From the NCBI GenBank assembly GCA_000004695.1, contig CM000152.2, forward strand, positions 5,792,001 through 5,856,000: DNA of 64,000 nucleotides, read 5' to 3'. The position numbers and the translations under genes are program-made. The stretch's first letter is position 1; every line of letters starts with the position of its first letter. This stretch comes from Dictyostelium discoideum (lineage: Eukaryota). Shown here one piece after another: positions 759 to 62,988 of this stretch. The notes under the pieces are model-generated. The model was not told where the DNA came from. It made no database searches and saw nothing but the letters and a program-made list of their open reading frames with translations.

Positions 759-1268
759 ATGAAAAAAAGAGTAACAATTAGATTTTATGTTAAAAAGAAA
801 TTAGAATATGGGCAAAGATTAAAAGTATGTGGATCAGTTAGAGGATTGGGTAGTTGGAATTCAAAATCTGCCATCCAAATGAATTGGACAGAGAATGATT
901 GGTGGACTGGTGAGTTTCAATTTGAAGCTACTTCAAATTTACCCAAAAACAACTTCAAATTAGAAACATCATCATATTATTTTAGAAATAAAAATCAATA
1001 TCATAATAATAATAATAATAACAACAACAATGAGGGTTTTATTGATCAACAACAAATTAATAATTTATTTTCAAATAGTAAAAAACAAAATCATTTACCA
1101 AAATCATCATCATCCTCATCATCATCATTCTCATCATCATCAATTTCATCATACACTGTAGAAGAGGATGATTATTTTGGTAATAATAATAATAATAATA
1201 ACAACTACAATAATCAAAGTGTAGACAATAATAGTTTCATGAATAATCAAATGTCATCATATGATGAA

Positions 1269-1326
<58 letters not shown>

Positions 1327-3128
1327 GTTATAATAATGGTTATAATAGTGATACATTAAATTATGGATGTGGTGATGGTAGTTCAAATAGTGTAAATTAT
1401 CAATTAAGTAATTCACAATCATTATCTCCATCACTTAAAGGTACATCACCACAATTGATCGAATTTGATTATAAATATATGTATGAATCTTATGATTGTC
1501 AATATTGGGAGAAAGGAGCAAATCATCGTGTTTCTTTTATGATGTGGTCAAATGATTTCTCAAATGAAGAAGAAGAAATTTATATTGAAATTAGAGATGA
1601 ATATGAAGGTGTATGTATAACAATATTTTTATATATATATATATATTATTTATTTACTAATAATAATAATTAATAGGGTAATGAAGTTTTCCCAACATTA
1701 GATTATAGATCATTAAGTAAAGTATCATCACCACCATTATATAGTTTGGATGAATTATCATTAATCGATAGTAATAGTAATATTAATAATAATAATACAA
1801 CATCAACACCATCATCATCAATAACAACTACAACATTAACATCAAATAATAGTAATGATGATTTGGTTGGATTACAATTTAAATATTCATTTTTACAACC
1901 ATTGGAATCACAAATTATACCAAGATTTCCAGCACAAATTTGTACATTTGTTGTGATGGATGAAGGTGATTCTGAATTTCATTCAGTGAATTTAGTTAGT
2001 CAATTCTTTGGTACCGATAGTCAGAAATCATTGAGAATGTATCCAGTGACAAGAGCAGGATCATCTAATACCATTTGGATAGGTCAAATCTATTCACCAC
2101 AACCAATGAAATTTGAATATCATTATGTTGTAACAAGTAGTAATAATCGTGGTATCTATTGGGAGAAAGAGAAACGTACATTTTCAACATCGAATTGTAA
2201 TGATAATTTGGTGATCAATAATGATGGTATGATAAAGTACTCCGATGTGTCTGATAGTTGGGTGAAGACTGGTTTCGTGGGTCTATTGGAACAGGATTAC
2301 AATTGTTCGATATCGTGTGTCGTTCAATTATTATATCATATAGTACCATTACGTAATATCATCAAGAATTTGGGTGGAAAGATTGGGTTCCCTTTCACCC
2401 AATGTTTGGCAAAGATTTTCACTTCAATGGAGATGGGATTCGGAACCACCGATATATCACCTCTACCCAATTCAATAGGGTCACAGGATTCTGCAGAGAT
2501 ATTGGATATCATTGTCAATGCTTTGATCGAGGAGATATCAAGAATTTCAAAGAATAATAATGATTACAGTTTGTCAATCGAGTGTTGTAAATTGTTTGAG
2601 GGTGAACAACAACATACCTACGTTTGTATCGATAAGGATGGTAGAATCAACTCTATGAAAACTAGTAATGAAAAGTTTGTAAATATCATATTACCAGTGA
2701 AAGGATTCAGTTCCTTGGAGGACTCGTTGGAGTTCTATAAACATAGTGAGGAGAAATCGGTGGTTGGCGATGGTAGCATCTATGAATCTATGAATGAGTT
2801 TGTAACGATTCCTGATATTTTAATATTCCAATTGGATCGTACAGATTATGAAAATAGAAAAACTATAAAGGTTTCAAATAATTTCAGTTTTCCAAAATCA
2901 TTAGATATCACTAGTCATAATGGTGATAGAGTTAAATTCAAAATAGTTGGTATCCTTTGTCATTCAGGTTCTGACTTTTATGGTGGTGGTCATTTCTTTT
3001 TATTCATTCATCAAAATAATAAATTTTATAAATTTGATGGTTCAAATGTTTCAATTTCAAATAATCAAGAAGCAATCATTAATAATTTTGGTGGTGATTC
3101 AAATCAAACTGCTTGTATGTATTATTAA
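759..3128 (+). CDS. CBM20 (starch/glycogen-binding) domain fused to a USP-type ubiquitin carboxyl-terminal hydrolase. Two exons: 759..1610 and 1677..3128, intron 1611..1676 (GTATGT...AATAG, 66 nt). About 767 aa.
   Basis: The N-terminus 'VTIRFYVKKKLEYGQRLKVCGSVRGLGSWN...AIQMNW...W...YKYMYESYDCQYWEKGANHRVSF' fits the CBM20 consensus (V.F.V..GQ.L.v.Gs..LGnW....a..M.w....W.....YKY.....WE.g.NR), interrupted by a poly-N/poly-S insertion. Exon 2 carries a USP Cys box 'GLLEQDYNCSISCVVQLL' (aligns to GLxNxGNTCYxNSxLQxL with the catalytic Cys retained), the 'IPDILIFQLDR' motif, and a His box 'GILCHSGSDFYGGGHFFLFIHQNNKFYKFDGSNV'. The reading frame is continuous across a 66-nt intron (exon 1 is 852 nt = 284 codons; 759 and 1677 are both 0 mod 3). 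The track ORF at 1746 begins with TTG, not ATG. Confidence 0.7.
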
Positions 3129-3938
3129 ATTATTATTTTTTTTTTTTTAAAAAAAAAAAAAGATATTAATATATATATTTTTATTTTACTTTTTTTTTAG
3201 ATGTTTTGATTTATCAAAAAATAAATCAATTAGATAGTTTTAATTAAATTGGGATAGATATTAATAATAAAAAAAAAATAAATAAAATCTTAAAAAAAAA
3301 AAGAAATAAAAATTTTTTTTTTATTTATTTATTTTTTTATATTTATTTTTAAATCAGAATTCATATTTAGATTAATAATATAATAATAATAATAGAAAAA
3401 AAAAAAAAAATAAAAAATAAAAAAAAAAATAAATTGGAAAAATAAAATTATTTTTAGTGGTATTCACTATTTTCATATCCATCAAAGATATTTTTTTTAT
3501 TTATTTTAATTTCTTTTTTTTTTTTTTTTTTTTTATTTTTTTGGGGTTAATGCACCTTAATTTCATTTTTTTTTTTTATTATTATTTTTTTTATCATAAA
3601 TGGTATACATTCATTAACTTTTTTTAATTTAATAAAATGAAAAATTTAAAATATTAAAAAATGTAAGTCATTTTTAGAATAAAATTTCAACATCTTTTTT
3701 TTTATTTTCTTTTTTTGTATAAAATATGTCTATTTTTATATCACATGTGTTTTATTTTATTTTCCAATAAAAATAAAAAAATAAAAATAAAAAAAAAAAA
3801 AAAAGTAAAAAAAAAAAAAAAAGTTAAAAAAAAAAAAAGAATAGTTTTCTAGAGAACAACACATATTTAATACAACCTCATACTACACACACAAAACACA
3901 CACATAATATTAACAAAAAAAAAAAAAAAAAAAAAAAA

Positions 3939-8480
<4,542 letters not shown>

Positions 8481-13819: not shown

Positions 13820-15271
13820 ATGGATAATTATAAATCATTTTCAAAAAATGCAAAGAAAATTTTAAATTCACCGATTTGTAATAATAAAATGCAAACTGCA
13901 CATTATACAGCAATGGAGAATTTATTTTGTCCAGAAACTAATAAAGATGGCTATATTAGTTTAGGGATTGCAGAAAATGTTTTATCATTTGATGTAATGA
14001 AAGATAAATTAAGTGTTGATCCAAATTTTTGTCAAAGATTAACTCAATATAGTGATATGGGTGGATTTAGAGATTGTCGTGAATCAATTGCAAATTTATT
14101 ACAAAATCATCTATTTAAGTATAAACCAATAAATAAACCTGAATTATTAGTTAATTATAAACAAATAATATTGGCAAATGGAGCAACACCATTATTAGAA
14201 AATATATTCAATATGTTTTGTGATCAAGATGAGGTTGCATTAATACCATCACCAATGTTTCCAAATTTTATTCCATTCGCAGGTCAAAGATTTGGTGTTA
14301 AAATCGTTGGTGTTAAAAGTGAAGTTTATAATCATGATAATACTAATAATAATAATGATAATAAAATAATTGATTTCGAATTAAATTTAGAAGAGTTTGA
14401 AAAACAATATCAACTTCATCCAGTTAAATTGGTTGTTTTATGTAATCCAAATAATCCAACTGGTTATATATTTTCAAAGAAACAAATTAAACAATTAGTT
14501 GATTGGTGTAGAAAAAAGAAAATTCATTTATTAAGTGATGAAATTTATGCACTTTCAATTTTTAATGGAAATTATTGTAGTGGTACAAGAGAAGATAATG
14601 AAGATGGTAATGGTAATGACGATAATGATGATGATATTTTTGAAAAAGATGGTGCAAATTTTGAAATACCAACAAATTCATTCTCAAGTATTTATGATAT
14701 ATGTAAAGGTGATATGGGAGAATATGTTCATTTAGTATCATCATTTTCAAAAGATTTCGGATTGAATGGATTTAGAGCTGGTTATTTTTTTTCACAAAAT
14801 CTAGATGTTCAAAGATATTTATTATCAACATCAAATTACTATTCTTGTAGTAACATCGTACAATCGGCATTAATTAATATAATAGAGGATAAGAAATACC
14901 TTTGCTCATTTATAAAAGAGAATCAAAAAAGGTTAACATCATCATATAATTTTGCAACTAAAACATTGGAACATTTTAATATACCCTATTTAAAATCATC
15001 TGCTGGTTTATTCATAACAATTGATCTTAGAAAATGTTTAAATAAATTACCATCATCATTAGAATTAAAAGATAATGATTGTCCATTTAAAAAAGAAATT
15101 CAATTATGGGAATTATTATTTGAAAATAAAGTTTTTTTAAATCCTGGAAAACTTTGTTACTTTGATGAACCTGGTTTTTATAGATTAATATTCACTTTAT
15201 CAAATGAATTTGTTTATAATGGAATTGAAAGAATTTCAAAAGTTTATAATCAATTATTATTAAATAATTAA
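13820..15271 (+). CDS. 1-aminocyclopropane-1-carboxylate (ACC) synthase-like PLP-dependent aminotransferase (class I/II fold), 483 aa, single exon.
   Basis: ATG at 13820. 'YISLGIAENVLSFDVM' corresponds to the ACS 'GLAENQLS' motif. 'LLANGATPLLENI', 'NPNNPTGYIFS', 'IHLLSDEIYALSIF' and the PLP-lysine region 'VSSFSKDFGLNGFRAGYFFS' (compare 'SLSKDMGLPGFRVGAIYS' in ACS) are all present. An internal D/N-rich insertion is typical of Dictyostelium. Confidence 0.8.
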   Translation: MDNYKSFSKNAKKILNSPICNNKMQTAHYTAMENLFCPETNKDGYISLGIAENVLSFDVMKDKLSVDPNFCQRLTQYSDMGGFRDCRESIANLLQNHLFKYKPINKPELLVNYKQIILANGATPLLENIFNMFCDQDEVALIPSPMFPNFIPFAGQRFGVKIVGVKSEVYNHDNTNNNNDNKIIDFELNLEEFEKQYQLHPVKLVVLCNPNNPTGYIFSKKQIKQLVDWCRKKKIHLLSDEIYALSIFNGNYCSGTREDNEDGNGNDDNDDDIFEKDGANFEIPTNSFSSIYDICKGDMGEYVHLVSSFSKDFGLNGFRAGYFFSQNLDVQRYLLSTSNYYSCSNIVQSALINIIEDKKYLCSFIKENQKRLTSSYNFATKTLEHFNIPYLKSSAGLFITIDLRKCLNKLPSSLELKDNDCPFKKEIQLWELLFENKVFLNPGKLCYFDEPGFYRLIFTLSNEFVYNGIERISKVYNQLLLNN

Positions 15272-15532: not shown

Positions 15533-17539
<2,007 letters not shown>

Positions 17540-19379: not shown

Positions 19380-19699
19380 ATGTCATCAGTTGAGGAACTA
19401 CAACAAGATCAACTACAACAAAAAGAACAACAAATAGAAGAACAAATAGAAGAACAAATAGAGGAAGAAAAAGAACAACAAGAGGAAATAAAAGAAGGGT
19501 CGATATCGATAAAAGACGATGTTGTAATGACAGTACCCATAATAGAGAACCATTTAAATAATAATAATAGTAATAATAAAATAAATAATAATAGTGTTGG
19601 TGGTAATAATAATATTAATAATAATAATAGCACTAAGAGCAATAGCAGCAATAAAACAATGACATCAAATGTTGCATCAATGGCAGTATCAGCAAAATC

Positions 19700-19730
<31 letters not shown>

Positions 19731-21548
19731 TCATCACCAGTGAAATCCAATAGTTTGAATAGATCAGGTGAGATATCAACAAAAAAAGCATCGACCCCAA
19801 CTAAATCATCTCCATTGTCAAGCGGCAATGACATTAAAAAATCGGGTGAATTAAAAATGAGACCTTCACCAGCATTAGAATATAAAAGATCATCCTCTTC
19901 ATCAAGTTTACCAATTTCATCAACAACAACAACAACTAGTAGTAGTAGTAGTAGTGGCGGTGTTTCAAAGAGAGCATCAGTAAACTTATCATCAACATTT
20001 AATGGTAGCAGTTCAAATATTGCAAGACCATCATCTTCATCAGCAATACAATCACCAACTATAAATAAAACTAAATCACTCACTGGTTCCAGTGGTAGTA
20101 GTAGTAGTGGCAGTGGATCACCATCAAGATCAAATACACCAGTTAATAGCACTATCAAACAAACATCAACCACACCAACTTCATCACCAAGAGTAAAAAC
20201 CACTTCTACTGTATCATCATCATCATCATCATCAACTACAACTACATCTAGATTAGGTTCAACAACAACAACAACATCATCAACAACAGTAACATCATCA
20301 CCATCAAGAGTAGCTTCAACATCAAGTTTAACACCACAAAAATCATTAACACCAAATAGATTATCTGGTACATTTCCAAGAACAACCACATCATCATCAA
20401 CACCAACATCTTCACCATTAAGATCGACATCATCAACAACAACTACATCATCATCTACACCAAATAGACTTTCAAGTACAATTAATAAAGTTGTATCATC
20501 GTCACCATCATCAACATCATCATCATCATCTTCACCAACTAGATCAGCAACACCACTTCCACCAACTAGTACATCAAAATTGTCGTCAACGACATCATCA
20601 TCATCATCATCATCATCTACCCCTAATAAAACACCACTTTCAACAAGATCAACATCAACACCATCATTAAGAACACCAGTTACAAATACAACACCAAGTA
20701 AATCACATTCATCATTTAGTACTCCAACATCATCACCATCTATGAAATCATCACCAGGTAAAGAGATGTTGGAATTTTGGAAGAAGAAAGAGACAGAAGC
20801 CTCACCAAAGAGTTCTCCATCAAGATCATTAACATCTTCACCATCAACTTCTTCACCAAGAATATCTTCAACCACTAGACCAGTGTCAATGACACTTAAA
20901 TCACCTCTTGGTAGTATAAGTAGTAGTCCAAGTAGTAGTGGGGTTAAAAAAACTACTACTACAACAACAACACCATCATCACCACTTCCAAATATTAAAT
21001 CAAGTTTAACAAATGGTAATACACCAACTAAACCAACATCAACAACATCAACATCAACAACAACAACATCAACAACATTATCTTCACCAAAATCTATAAG
21101 AAGATTAAGTACTCCAATACTTTCAAATAATTCAACACCAAATAAAGATTCATTAACCAAACCAAAATCAACATCTGGATTCTCAACATCAACCAAATCA
21201 TCACCTGTATCATCTATTAAAAAACCAACAAATCCAAATCCAACTCAACAATTTGTTTCACCAAGTAAATTATCAATTAATGGTTCAGTATCAAAATCAT
21301 CACCAATTAAAATGTCTGAATTAAAACCTGAAGTTAAACAACAAAAACAACAAGAAATTAAAATTGAACAAGTTGAAATTAAAAAAGAAGAAGAGATTAA
21401 AAAGGTAGAACAAGAGGTTAAAAAAGTTAAAGAACAAGAGAAAACAATTGAAATTATTAATGAGGAAACAATGGATGTTGAAAAAATGGAGAATGAAATT
21501 CAAAACCTTGAAAATCAAATTAAAGAACTTGAACTACAAGAAAAACAA

Positions 21549-21593
<45 letters not shown>

Positions 21594-21609
21594 GTTGAAG
21601 CTGTAGAAG

Positions 21610-21701
<92 letters not shown>

Positions 21702-22376
21702 GATGACCAAATTAAAAAGGTACAAATTGAAAATCAAGAAGAAGTTGCACCATCATCATCTGATATTACAAATGTACCAACTGATGGTATTTTCTTTAGT
21801 ACTGAACAAAAGACAGATGATTCATCAAAAACTCAATCATCAGATTCATCAAATACAGATTCATCAGATTCATCAAATACAGATAAACAAGAATCAACAA
21901 ATTCATCACAATCAACATCTATTATCAATACATTATTAAATCATAAAAAAGATAACGAGGATGATGACGATGACGATGAAGATGAAAATAAGAAGCCATT
22001 AAATAAAATAACAGAAAAAGTTGATGATAAAGAACAAGAGAATAAAAATAATAATGAAGAAACAAAAGAAGAGGAAGAAGAAGAAAAAATTAAACAACAA
22101 GTAACCAAACAAGAAGAAATTAAAGAAGGAATTAAAGAAGTTAAAGAAGAAATTAAAGAAGTTAAAGAAGAAGTTAAAGAAGAAGTTAAAGAGGAAATTA
22201 AAGAAGTTAAAGAAGAAGAAGATGATGATAAAAAACGTAAATTTGAAAAAGTTGAAGATTTAATAACCTCTGGCAAAGTTGAAGAGCCTGTTAAGAAGTT
22301 ATTTGTTCCTCCACATTTCATTACATCACTATCATCACCATCTTTAAATTCAACTTCACCAACTATTTTAGAATCC

Positions 22377-22446
<70 letters not shown>

Positions 22447-23420
22447 TACCATCAACAACGACTATAGTATCAGAAAATACGTCATCCTCTGTGGCAAATA
22501 CAACCACAACAACCACAACAACCACAACAACAACTATACCAATAACAGTTACAACAACACCAACAACTACACCAGTTCAATCATTACATTCTTCATTATT
22601 ATTACCAGTACCAAATTCAATTACTTCAACAACTTCAACACCAACAACTCCAACTACATCACCATCACCTGTATTTAATAAACCAATTTTACCACCAAGA
22701 GACTTAAAAGAAGATACCAAAAAGATTTGGTTAAGAGCATTTTCAACTCTTCCAGTTGGAATGGATTTACCAAGATTAGCATCATGTATTTCAGTTTTCG
22801 ATGCAAGATCATCATCATCATCTGAATCACCAACTAAAGATTTAGCACAAAGAGATAGTCCAAAGAAACAAGTCATTGACGTTTTATTAGGTCTTTTACA
22901 ATTATTCCCAGTTTCAGATGATAATACTACAAGTAAAATTAGAAACTCTGAACAATTGATTGAAACATACACAACCATTGGTGAACCACTACCATTTTCA
23001 AAATCATTATTGGAGAATTTCGGTGAACAGTCACCAATTCTTCAAGCTTTGAAAGCTTGCAATCAATCAATTATCGCACCATCTGTTATCGAATTGAAAC
23101 TTGGTATCTGTCAAAGATTAATGTTCAAAGATGCAGGTGGTTGGGAAATTAGCATAAAGGCCATCGATAATGATACCGTCATCATATCACATGTAAAGAA
23201 ACAACAACATATGGATCCACGTAAAGAAGAAGAATACTTTGAATTCCTTTGGGAGTTGGAATTAATATTCAATGGAGATTTATCAAAATTAAATAATGTA
23301 ACACTATCAATATTAGAATTAAAATTCGGTGAAAAAACAAGACAAGATAAAAAAGATGAATATTTATTATTATTTAATGATCATTTAAAAAATAATAAAA
23401 TAAATAAATTAAATAATTAA
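19380..23420 (+). CDS. Large (1346 aa) Ser/Thr-rich, mucin-like low-complexity protein with a central E/K-rich coiled coil and a conserved globular C-terminal domain. Function unknown.
   Basis: ATG at 19380. There are long S/T/P tracts, an 'EIKEVKEEVKEE' repeat region, poly-Q (21609..21699) and poly-N. The C-terminal region (about 250 aa: 'KIWLRAFSTLPVGMDLPRLASCISVF...GWEISIKAIDNDTVIISHVKK...EYFEFLWELELIF') is not low complexity and looks like a helical + PH-like fold. The antisense track ORFs 19409..21196, 21941..22525 and 22577..22978 are reverse-frame artifacts of this GC-richer coding repeat. Confidence 0.7.
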
Positions 23421-43954: not shown

Positions 43955-46273
43955 TTATTTATTTTTCCAATTCCAAACTTTAATTAAATTATCACAACCA
44001 CCACTAAAAATTCTTTTACCATCAGTTGCTAAAGAATTAACACCAGAACGATGAGCTTTTGTTGAAGAAATTATTTTAATTGGTTCATTTTGATTTGAAA
44101 TATCAATGATTCTAATTGTTGAATCATCTGATGAAACGAATAAATAGCCATTTGATGTGACTAAAATATCAGTGATTGCCATATTATGTTGATCCAAGGT
44201 TGTGGTTGGTTGAAAAGTTGAGAGATTCCAATCTTTAATTTCACCATCTTTACTAGCAGAGAATAATCTATTACCAAACATACGTAATGATGTAATTGGT
44301 GCATCATGTGCATCATTCATACCATAAACACACATACACATTTCAAGATCCCAAATTTTAATAGATTGATCATTTGAAGAACTAAATAAATATTTACCAG
44401 ACATATAAATTGATTTAATTGATTTGCCATGTGCATTTAATGATTTTATACATTTAAATGTTGATAAATCATAAATTTTAATTTGTTTATCAAATGAACA
44501 ACTTACTAAAAAGTTATTTTCAATATCAATACACATATCATTAACTTCTGCTGTATGATCTTCCAATTTACCAATACATTCATATGATGATGATGATGAT
44601 GATGATGATTGCTTTGATGTTGTTGTGGTTGTTGTTGTAGTTGGTAACGACCAAATTTTAATAGTACCATCTGAAGAGGCTGTGAATAAATATTTTTCAT
44701 TTAATAACATTTTTTCAATTGATCTACGATGAGCTCTAAAACTATCAATCATTTGAATCTTTGATAAATCTTCATTATTTGTTAAATTCCAAATTTTAAC
44801 GTAACCATCAGCAGATGCTGAATAAAGTTTAGTTTTATCTTGATTGATTAATAGTGAACAAACTCTTTCATCGTGACCTGATAAATGAACGATTGATGTT
44901 AGTTCAGAGTTTAATGGATTGGATGGTTGATTTTCAATTAATGGATATTCTGGTTCGTATAGGTCAGGTGTTAAATCTGGTAATAGCATTGTACCTCTAA
45001 TTACTCTATGAGCATTACGACCTGTTTCTAAGCCAATTGGGGGCAACCCGAATTGAAGACAGATTGGTGAACATTTATGAGAGATTAAAAACTTTTCAAT
45101 ACCTTTTTGACCTAAATTTCCCTCACCATATCCTTTACCGTCTTTAGTGTGAACTTGTGGGTCTGTGTAAATATCATCAACTCCCTGTATATCAACCACC
45201 ACCATTTCATGTGTTGTGCATTCATAAGTGAAATGACTGAATGATTGTGGTGTATTTCTCTCTGTGAAAACAGTACCAAAATTTGAATTTTGTTTCTTAA
45301 ATTCACCCTTCATAAATAATTCAAGACCGTATAGAGTGTTATTTGAACTATTACGATTACCAACTCTATAATTTGTTGTACCTTGAATTTCGATTACCCA
45401 TGCCGAAAGGAACTCAATTTTCTTTGGTGGATGATTACTATTGTATCGTTCGCCATAGGATTTACAAACCATTTGCATTTTAACATCTTCAAAATATCTA
45501 TTGAAATTAACAGATGTTTTTGAATCTTTTGCAACATATAATGTATCTAAACTTAAATTTTGATTTAGTTTTGGAATTTGTGATAAATTTAATTTCTTTC
45601 CTTCCATATATTTCTCATGAATTGGTGTTGCGAAATGATTAAAACATTGCATTGCATTAGATCGAATTTTCAATTGATATGCATTTCTAAGTGCACCTTT
45701 TGCAAATGGTTTAGCATCAATTTCAACTATAATCAATGCTTTTGTCCATTCATCATCATTTGCTGAATATTCCCAAATTATTGCCCATTGACAATTTGAA
45801 TCTGGTAAATTTGGCAATTTATCTTCAGTTGTTATAAAATTAATTTCTTCTTGTTGTTGTTGTTGGTTTTGTTGTTGTTGGTTTTGTTGTTGATTTTGTT
45901 GGTCATTTAATATAGAACTATTATCATTATTTGTACTATCAGTATTATTTGATGAAACTGTATTAATTAATGATGTAGAGGCTATGAAATCCATTGATGG
46001 CGATTTTGAAGGTCTTGGTGTGGTTGGTACAATATACAAATGTTCAGAATCTTTTGAATATTTTAATAATGAATCTGATGAATCCTCTTTTTTAAATAAA
46101 TTGCCAGTTGATGGCATTCTACCATTTCCTAAAAATTGAATTCTTGGTCTATTACCACTACCACTTAATTGTGGTGATGATACTGGTGAAACAATTGGTG
46201 ATGATGAATTTGAATTTGAATTTGAATTTGAAGATGATGTTGATAATGGTGATGTAATTGTTTGATTATTTAA

Positions 46274-46357
<84 letters not shown>

Positions 46358-46584
46358 TACAGTTGTTTGTGATATTGGTGAATTAATTGGTATAAATGAA
46401 TTATTTGAATTGGTTAAACTATTTGGATCAATTTGTGAAGTTGTGGTGATAGTAGATGTTTGAGTAGGTGATGGTGTAGTTGATGATGTGGCTGATGAGT
46501 TATTACTATTTGTCATTGAATCAGTTGATGTTCTTGGACTTAAAGGTGGTGAATTTGAAATTCCAACACATGTTGAATTATTGT

Positions 46585-46616
<32 letters not shown>

Positions 46617-46780
46617 GGGTGAATATTATTTTTTCTTAATAATAATAATAATTCTTGAATTTTAAATTCATGATTATCAACTGATTTTGTTAATTGTTCT
46701 ACCTTTTTTTTTAAGTAATCATTTTTTTCCAAAATTTTTTCAATCTTTTTACTTAATTTTAAAAATGAATTATCTTCCAT
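43955..46780 (-). CDS. mhkD: Myosin heavy chain kinase: N-terminal coiled coil + S/T/N/Q-rich linker + alpha-kinase catalytic domain + C-terminal 7-bladed WD40 domain. 941 aa.
   Basis: ATG at 46780. Alpha-kinase hallmarks are 'AKPFAKGALRNAYQLK', 'FTYECTTHEMVVVDIQGVDDIYTDPQVHTKDGKGYGEGNLGQKGIEKFLISHKCSPICLQFGL' (the D-x-Q-G-x-x-D-x-x-TDPQ-H and GNLG motifs of MHCK/eEF2K/TRPM7) and a C-terminal Cys/His zinc site. The WD repeats are LTSIVHLSGHDERVCSLL, ...SASADGYVKIWNL, FSSSNDQSIKIWDL, etc. This architecture equals Dictyostelium MHCK-A..D. The paralog call mhkD rests only on my recollection that MHCK D is 941 aa; treat the symbol as tentative. Confidence 0.85.
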
Positions 46781-47850: not shown

Positions 47851-48026
47851 TTAATATTTATTATATATTAATAATTGACCCAATGTATCTGTAGTTATTA
47901 AAAAAATATTATTATTTACTGATAAAAATGAAGTATTTGTTATTGGTCTATTTGAAGCAGTAAAATATTCAAAATTTTCAATAGCTATCTTGTTTTGACC
48001 GCTATTATTACTTATACCATTATTTA

Positions 48027-48092
<66 letters not shown>

Positions 48093-49773
48093 TGTTTAAA
48101 TTATTTATAACACTATTATTATTATTATTTAGATTACTCTCGTGAATATTATTATTAATATTATTATTATTATTATATTGTTCTGAAAAGTTATCCCAAA
48201 TATAAATTTGATTATCTTCACAACCGATGAGAATACTCTTTCTATCGATTGAAGCTACAGGTTTAACTTGATAATTACCAAGGATTCCACCACCACCGTA
48301 TCTACATATCCTTTTGAAATCCTTTAATGAGAAATGTCTAATGCAATTATCATTTGAGCTTACTAGAATTTCACTTTGATTTAAAGAATTCGAGATAGTT
48401 TGAATACCAATGATTTTTGGACCTTTACCTTTTTTAGAGTTATTATAACTTTGACTAATATTGAATTTATGAATCAAATGTTGTAGATTCAATGGATTTA
48501 AAAAGAATAAATTACCAAGATGCGTTGAAACTATTAAATAGTATGGATCGGCAATTGATAATACTATACTTGTTATATATTCACCCAAATCAAATTGTTG
48601 CAATGGTTTACTTGAATCATTGATTGACCATTTAAATACACCACCATCCAATGTGGCCGAATAAAAACATTGATTAACATCATCACTTGTTATCGATACA
48701 ACAATATCATTATGTTCAAATGTTTTCAAACATTCACCAGTATCTGTATTCCATAATCTAACGGTTTTATCAACTGATGATGATATTAATCTATTCAATG
48801 ATATCCATTTCATTTCTAATACATGATTTGTATGACCTTCTAATATTAATTTTGGTGTTGTTTCTAAAATATGATGATTATGATTACTTGAATTATTTTG
48901 ATTTGTAATATTTGTATTTGTTGTTGTTGTCGTAGTAGTTGTGGTTGTTGTTGTTGTTGTTGTTGTTGAATTACCGCTACTACTACTTGTAGTTGTATTT
49001 GTTCCACTTGAATTACTTGAATTACTACAAATACTTTCGTCATCAGATGAATGATTTGATCCACCATTACAATTATTACTATTTGTATTTGTATTTGTAT
49101 TTACATGAATTGGTAATGGTGAAGTATTTGCGCCATTATTATTTGGTTGTTTTAAAATTTTCCAAATTTTAATAACACCTTCAGAACCGCCAGTTGATAA
49201 GTAATTTTCATCTTTACTCATTTCCAATGACCAAATTGAACCTTTATGAGCTTGAATTAATTGACCCAATTGATAAGATTTTGTTTCTTTCTTTTTCTTT
49301 ATATTATGATTTTTTAACCATCTACCAACTCTGGATGTTGATTCATGTTGTTTTTCATTATTATTACTATTTACATCACTAACAGCTTCATCAACTGTAT
49401 TATTACTATTACTATTACCACTACCTGGTATTAATTTTCTTTTAATTAATTTTCTAATACCATCTCTTTCTTTATGTTCTTTTTCCTTATGATCTTTATC
49501 TTTAAGTTCTTTATCTTTATGTTCTTTTTCTTTATGCTCTTTGTCTAATAAATTATGTAAATTTGAATTTGAGGTATTTTGTGAGGTTTGTTGCTGTTGT
49601 TGAAATATATTTTGAAGAGAATCAGGTGTTTGTTGATGTTCTTTTTCACCTTTAAATAAATTACTAATCTCTTCTTTTTTATTTTTAATTAAATTTATAA
49701 CTCTTGAATTTCTTTTACTTCTAACTGATCCTGTGCCATTATTGCTATTATTATTTGTATTTGTATTTGGTGG

Positions 49774-49824
<51 letters not shown>

Positions 49825-50066
49825 AGTTAGTGATTGTGATGGTGGTTGAAAAGCAGAAGTATCAGATTGAGACAATATTGAATTCTTTAAAGAGATTGGA
49901 GCCAAATCAACTGTTGGTAATGAAGCAGCAGATGTTGATCTAACCAATGATGGTGAATTGATTGGTGAATCAGTTGGTGAAATTGCTGTTGATGATAATG
50001 TGCAACTATCTGTTAATGTTGAATTTGATAAAACACTTGAATTCGTTGAATTATGTGATGTTGATA

Positions 50067-50136
<70 letters not shown>

Positions 50137-50502
50137 TTGAATTGTAATTTTATTTTGAGATTCTCTTAAATTGATTGAACTAATATCTTTAGAGATTGAA
50201 TTTGATCTATCATTTATTAAATAACTTGGTGATACTGGTGTTGTTGAAGTTGACCAAGATGGATTAACCTCATAGCAATCATAGAATGATTCATCATCAT
50301 CTTCTTCATCACCTCTGGAATATAAACTATTTGATGATGTATGTGTATCAACATTTTTATAAACTAATAAATGGTGATGTGCTGATCCACCACTTGCTGT
50401 TAAATTATTGGCTCCATTTGGGTTATTATTATTATTATTATTATTATTGTTGTTATTATTATTGTTATTATTACAATTACTAATTGAAATCGTTGTTGCC
50501 AT
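47851..50502 (-). CDS. WD40-repeat protein of 883 aa, WDR44 (rabphilin-11)-like, with a long N/S/T/Q-rich N-terminal region.
   Basis: ATG at 50502. The WD-repeat core 'IQAHKGSIWSLEMSKDENYLSTGGSEGVIKIWKI', 'LEGHTNHVLEMKWISLNRLISSSVDKTVRLWNTDTGECLKTFEHNDIVVSITSDDVNQCFYSATLDGGVFKWSI' resembles WDR44 ('FKAHDGAVWTMKFS..GRLLATAGQDNVVRIWVL', '[31 protein letters not shown]', 'FQHIDFVTAIAFHP.DDRYFLSGSLDGKLRLWNI'). A charged 'KEHKEKEHKDKELKDKDHKEKEHKE' repeat and several poly-N/poly-Q tracts are present. The antisense track ORFs 48864..49067, 49755..50483 etc. are artifacts. Confidence 0.7.
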
Positions 50503-58861: not shown

Positions 58862-61659
<2,798 letters not shown>

Positions 61660-61687
61660 CTATATCCATATTAATTAAAATGGAGGG

Positions 61688-61740
<53 letters not shown>

Positions 61741-62988
61741 TAAAAAAAAGTTTGGTGGTCACCTCTTTTTCTGTTTGTGATTTTTTTTTTTTTTGTTTTT
61801 ATTTTTATTTAATTTTAATTTAAATTTTAATTTTAATTTTTTTTTTAATTTTTTTTTTGGGATAGAAGTCGAATTGCCGAAACGATACGAGTCTCTAAAT
61901 GAAAATAGGGCTGACAAAAATAAAAAAAGCGAAAAAAAAAAATAAAAAAATAAAAAAAAAAGAAAAAAAAAGAAAAAAAAATAAAAAAAAATCAAAAAAA
62001 GAAAAAAAAAACTGGTTTTGGAATGGAACCTACTTTTTAATTTTCTTTTGTTTTTTTTTTTTTATTTTTTTTTAAAGAAAAAAAATTTATTATTTTTTAT
62101 TATTTATTATTTATTATTTATTATTATTAATTTATTATAATAAAAGCTTTTATTTCTTTTTTTTTTTTCCTTGAATGATGAAAAATGAGAATGAAAAAAA
62201 AAAAAAAATAAAATAAAAAATAAAAAAAAAAAAAAAAAAATAATTGAAAGTAACAGTCCAAAAATTTTTTTTTTTATTTTTTTATTTTTTTTTTAATTTT
62301 TTTATTTTTTTATTTTTTTGGTGGGGGAAAAAGTCCACAAGCATAAAATTTTTTTTTTTTTTTGACAACAGATATTTTTTTTTTGTATTTTTGTTTAATA
62401 TACAATACAAATTTTTTTTTTTTTTATTTAATTTTAAAAAATAAATTATATTACTATTATTATTATTATTATTATTGAAACTACTATTTTTTAATGTAAT
62501 ATTCGCGAATCCGTCCTAAAAATATATTTTTTTTTTTGGGCATAGATTTTTTTTTTTTAATCTTTTTTTTTTTTTTCAAATTTTTTTTTTTTTTCGCATC
62601 CAAAAATATCTCATTGGTGATTATTTCCATTATAATAATTAAATCATTTCAATTTAATATATAAAAAAAAAAAAAAAAAAAAAAAAAATTATAAAATAAT
62701 TAATAAAAAAAAACAAAAACTGAAAAATAAATAACCAGTTTTTGTTTATTCAATAATATATAAAATCTAAAAAATATACGAATAATATGCAAACTTATTT
62801 GAATTCAATCCTCTCCCCTGTCTCACTTGTTTATTAAAACCATATATAAATTTTTTTTTTTTTTTTTTTTTTATCTATATTTAATAAAAATAAAAATAAA
62901 TATTAAATAATAAATATTAGATGATAATATATTAATTCTTTTTTTTTTTTTTTTTCCAAAAACCAAAAACCATCCACACAAAAACATC

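Follow-up and report, generated by a model that had tools for sequence, protein, structure and literature searches.

Laforin (EPM2A) is a cytosolic protein with an N-terminal CBM20 followed by a dual-specificity phosphatase, and it contains no glycoside hydrolase. Its CBM20 delivers a modification-erasing enzyme to glycogen particles, all in one polypeptide. The subject here is a gene of Dictyostelium discoideum whose predicted product of 778 amino acids (aa) appears laforin-like in its logic, with two N-terminal CBM20 modules, the second of them degenerate, ahead of a ubiquitin-specific protease (USP) domain. The gene begins at position 759 of a 64,000-nt window (GenBank assembly GCA_000004695.1, contig CM000152.2, positions 5,792,001 to 5,856,000, forward strand). 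Laforin is a phosphatase that removes phosphate, whereas the USP would remove ubiquitin here, and the two have no homology beyond CBM20. Judged from its sequence, the CBM20-USP protein represents a real, conserved domain combination that is undescribed in the searchable literature, in effect a USP whose targeting module is new, and on balance we think it is a glycogen-tethered deubiquitinase (DUB).

STBD1, which is a CBM20 glycophagy receptor, HOIL-1/LUBAC, and malin also link glycogen with ubiquitin and autophagy-type turnover, but all of them either read the mark or write it, and the dictyostelid protein would be an eraser with a built-in CBM. HOIL-1 in vitro joins ubiquitin to the glucose C6 hydroxyl of glycogen via an oxyester bond, and no domain for carbohydrate binding is obvious in HOIP or Sharpin (PMC9016349). 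A further study (PMC13345935) describes ubiquitinated glycogen as abundant in mouse liver and muscle, as going up on fasting, and as being sent to lysosomes; there, ubiquitin-maltoheptaose and ubiquitin-glycogen are exposed in vitro to the catalytic domains of USP10 and USP21, an engineered CBM20-tethered HOIL-1 is employed, and the authors say that the specific E3s and deubiquitinases, which they leave open, may vary by pathway. A CBM20 within the ubiquitin system has a precedent in RNF213, a ubiquitin-system enzyme whose substrate, lipopolysaccharide, is non-protein and carbohydrate-containing; unlike the dictyostelid protein, RNF213 is a giant animal E3 ligase, hence a writer and not a DUB, and its CBM20, which is N-terminal, has a role that the review calls ambiguous (PMC12203941). 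According to that same review, DUBs are unknown for most non-protein substrates.

Among the papers on glycogen ubiquitination that were searched, none names a glycogen-dedicated ubiquitin eraser. The searchable literature yielded no paper on a CBM20-USP fusion, where papers mentioning CBM20 together with words beginning in deubiquitin were judged mostly by title or abstract, and neither CBM nor starch-binding domains are mentioned in a survey of DUB repertoires across eukaryotes, Dictyostelium among them. These searches agree with an earlier note on this DNA, whose author was aware of no described CBM20-USP enzyme; the proteins are nonetheless present in public databases, with automatic names only.

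CBM20 modules

The spliced protein was used as the query for Pfam, with cut-offs of 23.3 bits for CBM_20 (PF00686) and 23.9 bits for UCH (PF00443). The CBM20 fold that the earlier note had recognized in exon 1, here CBM20-1, is above threshold with 58.1 bits (E = 7.9 × 10−16), matching in two stretches around a low-complexity insert, and when the insert is deleted the score is 50.1 bits. In an alignment to the starch-binding domain (SBD) of A. niger glucoamylase, 1ac0, Y17 falls on Y527, W33 on W543, K239 on K578, W250 on W590, E251 on E591, and N255 on N595, and the residues on the dictyostelid side are invariant in the orthologues. We take the reference residues to be the site-2 Tyr and the site-1 ligand-binding residues of the glucoamylase SBD, and with that assignment both canonical maltooligosaccharide sites of CBM20-1 appear intact. 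The first strand of the module starts at residue 5, leaving no room for a signal peptide, which suggests that the protein should be cytosolic, where glycogen is.

The insert that splits CBM20-1 is of variable length between dictyostelid orthologues and is absent from P0015 of Ceratiomyxa. At its end stands the motif QSLSPsLKGtSPQ, in which Q220, L222, S223, P224, L226, K227, G228, P231, and Q232 are invariant in the 8 sequences compared. The motif may constitute two proline-directed phosphorylation sites that regulate glucan binding. In the second CBM20, the YxY strand has a similar [SA]PQ ahead of it.

A word-index profile search with CBM20-1 places P0169 to P0172, proteins of ~158 aa, as its nearest CBM20s, all with CBM20 as the sole precomputed Pfam domain. 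One of the matches is a Logan protein and three are small proteins; two of these three come from Cryptosporidium, where they are labeled "starch binding domain-containing" and have a coiled-coil-looking N-terminus. The motifs GQxLKV.G....LG.W and EYKYV...WE.G.NH are common to these proteins and CBM20-1. The matches of the same search were inspected for ubiquitin-system fusions or dictyostelid paralogues, and no E3-CBM20 partner was among them.

The second module, CBM20-2 (aa 352-482), was proposed in the earlier note as a possible second degenerate beta-sandwich, and profile-profile comparison backs this and points to a degenerate CBM20. Pfam CBM_20 scores it at 23.0 bits (E = 6.8 × 10−5), 0.3 below the cut-off, with 7 of 7 orthologues matching, and in Ceratiomyxa the corresponding region reaches 22.3 bits, spanning positions 15-91 of the 97 in the profile. 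When CBM20-2, pooled with Ceratiomyxa, is compared by hhalign with an independent CBM20 profile made from Pedinophyceae repeats, the small Cryptosporidium-type CBM20 proteins, and glucoamylase, the result is a probability of 95% with E = 3.5 × 10−8 over 65 columns. The hhalign comparison of CBM20-2 with CBM20-1 gives 68% probability with a common block SPQ..[FD]Y.Y..WEK. A PDB profile search with CBM20-2 returned no CBM20 match; its sole match, StcE at E = 0.41, was dismissed as chance.

USP domain

Pfam UCH is likewise above threshold, at 89.2 bits (E = 4.2 × 10−25) over aa 485-768 and profile positions 1-254 of 254, and neither this match nor that of CBM_20 is anywhere near chance level. USP7/HAUSP is the best relative by both sequence and fold. 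A PDB profile search gives the USP7 catalytic domain as best with E = 5 × 10−22 and an end-to-end alignment, and Foldseek of the model for orthologue P0002 finds the catalytic domains of USP7, USP12, and USP46 with a probability of 1.0 and template modeling (TM) scores of 0.6-0.7. The P0002 model is from AlphaFold2 with a mean predicted local distance difference test (pLDDT) of 50, the USP part being mostly at 60-87 and the Cys-box segment being of low confidence. As modeled, the USP part has the papain-like thumb-palm-fingers fold.

The candidate catalytic Cys, His, and Asp are placed as they are in USP7 (Table 1), and all three are invariant in the 8 sequences as well as being found in the Acytostelium subglobosum paralogue and in Ceratiomyxa. 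USP7 and the dictyostelid protein also share their terminal strand, AY[ILV]L[IV]Y, with orthologues ending in AY[IL]L[IV]YE[KR] and USP7 having AYMLVY aligned at the same place. On our own reading the zinc-ribbon cysteines of the fingers region are absent in the orthologues, as presumably they are in USP7. D555 and E558 are invariant in the orthologues, and we take them to be counterparts of the ubiquitin-tail-binding QHDVQE of USP7, with the reservation that the USP7 alignment places this segment differently.

Outside of the core the two proteins differ. USP7 has MATH/TRAF and C-terminal UBL/ICP0-binding domains, and the dictyostelid protein has its two N-terminal CBM20s instead; Pfam detected no MATH/TRAF, USP7_ICP0_bdg, or USP7_C2 domain in the 778-aa protein. 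Identity to USP7 is about 23%, and the equivalent of USP7 Asn218 is Glu, a substitution weighed below. Outside of the family, the closest relatives from the exhaustive search described in the next section are true USP7 orthologues that carry MATH and UBL domains. The CBM20-USP protein appears, from these comparisons, to be USP7-like in its catalytic core only.

Distribution

The family profile was searched exhaustively against 1.84 billion representative proteins. The CBM20 and USP architecture was found only in Dictyostelia, across six named genera, and in Ceratiomyxa, and this search produced no homologue outside of Eumycetozoa. All orthologues in the protein collection carry both PF00686 and PF00443 in precomputed annotation, and Ceratiomyxa fruticulosa Trinity transcripts P0015 and P0160 encode CBM_20 (59 bits) together with UCH (128 bits) on a single mRNA. 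A pair of metagenome fragments is similar to the Ceratiomyxa type. The combination is restricted to one lineage, and it has been sitting in the sequence databases unremarked.

One member departs from the full architecture. A. subglobosum P0013 (377 aa) is without CBM20-1 but still has part of CBM20-2 and a USP domain in which Cys, His, and Asp are kept. It may be a paralogue, or its gene model may be truncated. The remaining search matches are ordinary USPs, vertebrate tandem-USP arrays, or one CBM20-only protein. P0014, P0016, and P0017 score high, matching in multiple stretches, but they are mammalian or fish multi-USP-domain proteins and were rejected as CBM20-bearing relatives. Five of seven further matches that were checked were also rejected as family members, having no CBM20.

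Proposed function

If the protein is a glycogen-tethered DUB, CBM20-1 would dock it on the alpha-1,4-glucan chains of glycogen particles, with CBM20-2 giving extra avidity or serving as a spacer. From this tether the USP domain, through Cys494, His723, and Asp738, would cleave ubiquitin from ubiquitinated material on the particle, the candidate substrates being glycogen-metabolizing proteins or the glucan itself, and the enzyme would in this way counteract ubiquitin-dependent glycogen turnover. What the sequences show is how the gene is built, that both domain types are there, which residues are conserved, where in Eumycetozoa the protein occurs, and its likeness to USP7; glycogen binding, catalytic activity, and substrate identity we infer. 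A naturally occurring CBM20-USP fusion, conserved across the social amoebae and also found in Ceratiomyxa, hints in "Rosetta-stone" fashion that removing ubiquitin at glycogen particles is a selected function.

Several points weigh against this reading. The CBM20-1 strands are modeled at low confidence in P0002 (pLDDT about 50-64), and an AlphaFold2 model of CBM20-2 alone has a pLDDT of 53, with Foldseek matches that are meaningless, so that the models confirm neither beta-sandwich. CBM20-2 is without the first site-1 Trp and the site-1 Asn: the equivalents of W590 and E591 are kept as W446 and E447, while CBM20-2 has lost its counterpart of W543 and the alignment shows a gap at N595. We know of no demonstration that glycogen or its enzymes are ubiquitinated in Dictyostelium. 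Lastly, the replacement of the oxyanion Asn by Glu may weaken or alter catalysis.

On the last of these points, the Cys box reads GLLEQDYNC here versus the usual GLxNxGNTC. The oxyanion position is Glu in most dictyostelid members, Gln in A. subglobosum, His in the paralogue P0013, and Asn in Ceratiomyxa, where the residues of C. fasciculata and of the A. subglobosum paralogue were read by eye; it is Asn in 175 of 177 Cys boxes from the other top USP matches. The residues flanking the catalytic Cys are also atypical, being [YFN]NC[SA] as opposed to NTCY. The "complete USP catalytic core" of the earlier note is consequently correct for the Cys/His/Asp triad and incorrect for the oxyanion hole, where Glu489 has replaced the Asn. 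Such departures would suggest a pseudo-DUB, a crippled USP that binds ubiquitin and bridges ubiquitinated cargo or machinery to glycogen in the manner of a glycophagy-type receptor or adaptor. Yet Cys, His, and Asp remain invariant throughout the dictyostelid orthologues, the A. subglobosum paralogue, and Ceratiomyxa, and Ceratiomyxa retains the canonical Asn as well. USP pseudoenzymes are usually without the Cys or the His, and in papain a Gln19Glu change in the oxyanion hole is tolerated. We regard a pseudo-DUB as unlikely.

The modules themselves could be read differently, as a sensor or regulator in which glucan allosterically switches the USP and the substrates are ordinary soluble proteins, or as binding a protein partner or some other ligand. 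A model for the sensor is the AMPK beta subunit, whose CBM48 senses glycogen. CBM20-2 directly precedes the USP Cys box, and it has lost part of site 1 yet has 76% identity per column across orthologues, which suggests a conserved non-canonical role; the invariant SP-rich motif within CBM20-1 points the same way. However, every canonical glucan-binding residue is kept in CBM20-1, and the long, variable, low-complexity linkers suit a tether better than they do a rigid allosteric coupling. The CBM20s of laforin and STBD1 act as anchors. A sensing role in place of a tethering one seems improbable to us.

Returning to the glycogen-tethered DUB, a more specialized form of it would be a dedicated glycogen deubiquitinase, an oxyester hydrolase that frees ubiquitin from glucose hydroxyls, with the change from Asn to Glu being a specialization for labile esters over isopeptides. 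We consider this doubtful, though its consequences would be considerable: glycogen ubiquitination would be ancient, occurring in Amoebozoa as well as in mammals, and the protein would be the first natural "eraser" of glycogen ubiquitin, in a genetically tractable organism.

Dictyostelium mobilizes glycogen massively in development, and it is haploid and easily knocked out, so that the glycogen-deubiquitinase idea is directly testable there. The idea is topical in that ubiquitination of glycogen is now established for mammals, with the deubiquitinases involved not identified in PMC13345935. As a tool, the CBM20-USP protein could offer an off-the-shelf DUB directed to glycogen, a complement to the HOIL-1 that the same study engineered with a CBM20 tether.

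Gene structure

The window has 20.8% GC overall with coding tracts rich in poly-Asn, and the closest database proteins to the gene product are from D. discoideum strains. Open reading frame (ORF) and splice modeling predicts three exons on the + strand (Table 1). The ATG at 759 is in an A-rich context, the frame is open to 1610, and orthologue N-termini read MKKR[IV] in all cases. The earlier note had proposed an ORF from this start followed by a frame-preserving 66-nt intron, and both are confirmed in the sequence; the motif strings that it quoted are every one present in the translation. At the position equivalent to intron 1, H. album, T. lacteum, and C. fasciculata have contiguous coding sequence, and the junction peptide IEIRDEYEG/GNEVFPTLD is nearly invariant across all orthologues.

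That the CBM20 and USP exons come from separate genes, as the earlier note allowed for, or that the locus is a pseudogene, is effectively refuted: the exact 778-aa protein does have no match in a 15-billion-protein collection, where the models of two other D. discoideum strains are found (P0001 and P0011), but the exons look to be one gene because the junction is an uninterrupted ORF in those three other dictyostelids, because both Pfam domains are in all orthologues and together on single Ceratiomyxa transcripts, and there is 53% mean column identity over Dictyostelia without frame disruptions.

The 3' end differs from what was first described. The earlier note ended the coding sequence at 3128, a stop that lies in intron 2, and exon 3 was overlooked. 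Exon 3 continues the protein as ...NQTA/YVLIYQKINQLDSFN before the stop, restoring the USP C-terminal strand (AYVLIYQK). A terminal mini-exon of this type (ag/AT followed by [VIL]L[IV]Y[EQ]K) occurs in the second D. discoideum strain, D. purpureum, Polysphondylium violaceum, Tieghemostelium lacteum, and Heterostelium album, and the intron position (ag/AT) is matched by introns in loci L001, L002, L003, L004, and L006. C. fasciculata has no intron there, and its terminal peptide QQAYILIYEKQKS is encoded uninterrupted up to the stop. Database model P0001 (D. discoideum) stops inside the last intron (CMYY and stop), making the same 3' error as the earlier note, while P0004 (T. lacteum) has a different, non-matching 3' end and P0009 (D. 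purpureum, 1261 aa) is fused with the next gene. The conserved mini-exon is nonetheless present at the loci of all three (L001 ~10447; L004 ~5323; L006 ~5524).

Table 1. Features of the CBM20-USP gene, in window coordinates
Feature	Position	Strand	Details
Exon 1	759..1610	+	aa 1-284; entire first CBM20 including the low-complexity insert; ORF and splice model
CBM20-1, N-terminal half	771..989	+	aa 5-77; Tyr17 (site 2), Trp33 (site 1, LGSW); best Pfam stretch aa 5-61
Asn/Ser-rich low-complexity insert	990..1403	+	aa 78-215, ~140 aa; splits CBM20-1
Motif QSLSPsLKGtSPQ	1416..1454	+	aa 220-232, at the insert end
CBM20-1, C-terminal half	1455..1610	+	aa 233-284; Lys239, Trp250, Glu251, Asn255 (site 1)
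Intron 1	1611..1676	+	66 nt; GTATGT..AATAG; 7.6% GC; frame kept
Exon 2	1677..3114	+	aa 285-763 and the first base of codon 764
CBM20-2 (degenerate)	1878..2270	+	aa 352-482; Trp418, Trp446, Glu447 kept; LGxW Trp replaced (FFGTD)
USP (peptidase C19) catalytic domain, main part	2277..3114	+	aa 485-763; Pfam UCH
Glu489	2289..2291	+	position of the oxyanion-hole Asn (USP7 N218), five residues before the Cys
Predicted catalytic Cys494 (TGT)	2304..2306	+	equivalent to USP7 C223
Predicted catalytic His723 (CAT)	2991..2993	+	His box GGGHFF; equivalent to the GGHY His of USP7
Predicted catalytic Asp738 (GAT)	3036..3038	+	KFDG; equivalent to the first Asp of USP7 KFDDD
Intron 2	3115..3200	+	86 nt; GTATGT..TTTAG; 5.8% GC; phase 1; houses the false stop 3126-3128 (TAA)
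Exon 3	3201..3247	+	47 nt; aa 764-778, YVLIYQKINQLDSFN; stop 3245-3247; final beta-strand of the USP fold
Predicted splice junctions	1610/1677; 3114/3201	+	...GAAGGT/GGTAAT...; ...GCTT/ATGTTTTG...; splice model

Genomic neighborhood

Synteny is not conserved, with the gene neighbors being different in every species compared, so that nothing about function can be read from the surroundings. A 1513-aa uninterrupted ORF at 3939-8480 (+), rich in poly-Asn and poly-Gln and with no Pfam match at E ≤ 1 × 10−5, starts some 700 nt downstream; at L001, from the other D. discoideum strain, annotation divides the matching stretch into three genes (291, 1064, and 141 aa). Just upstream of CBM20-USP in that strain, beyond what would be the left edge of the window, are two tandem Bmp and 7tm_3 (family C G-protein-coupled receptor-like) genes at L001 805-7203. 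In T. lacteum, a UQ_con (ubiquitin-conjugating enzyme) gene lies ~360 nt downstream on the same strand (L004 5725-6361), an adjacency that is not found in the other species and is probably coincidental.

Farther along the window, there are a class I/II aminotransferase at 13820-15268 (+), a Glyco_transf_49 protein at 16013-17539 (-), a 1346-aa protein with a GlfB-like C-terminal domain at 19380-23417 (+), and an E2F/DP winged-helix protein at 58865-61762 (-), none of these having an evident link to the CBM20-USP gene. The gene for the GlfB-like protein is overlapped by a 595-aa antisense ORF at 19409-21196. At 43958-46780 (-) a 941-aa protein with an alpha-kinase domain and WD40 repeats has the myosin-heavy-chain-kinase type of architecture, and it is adjoined by the gene for a second WD40 protein, of 883 aa, at 47854-50502 (-).

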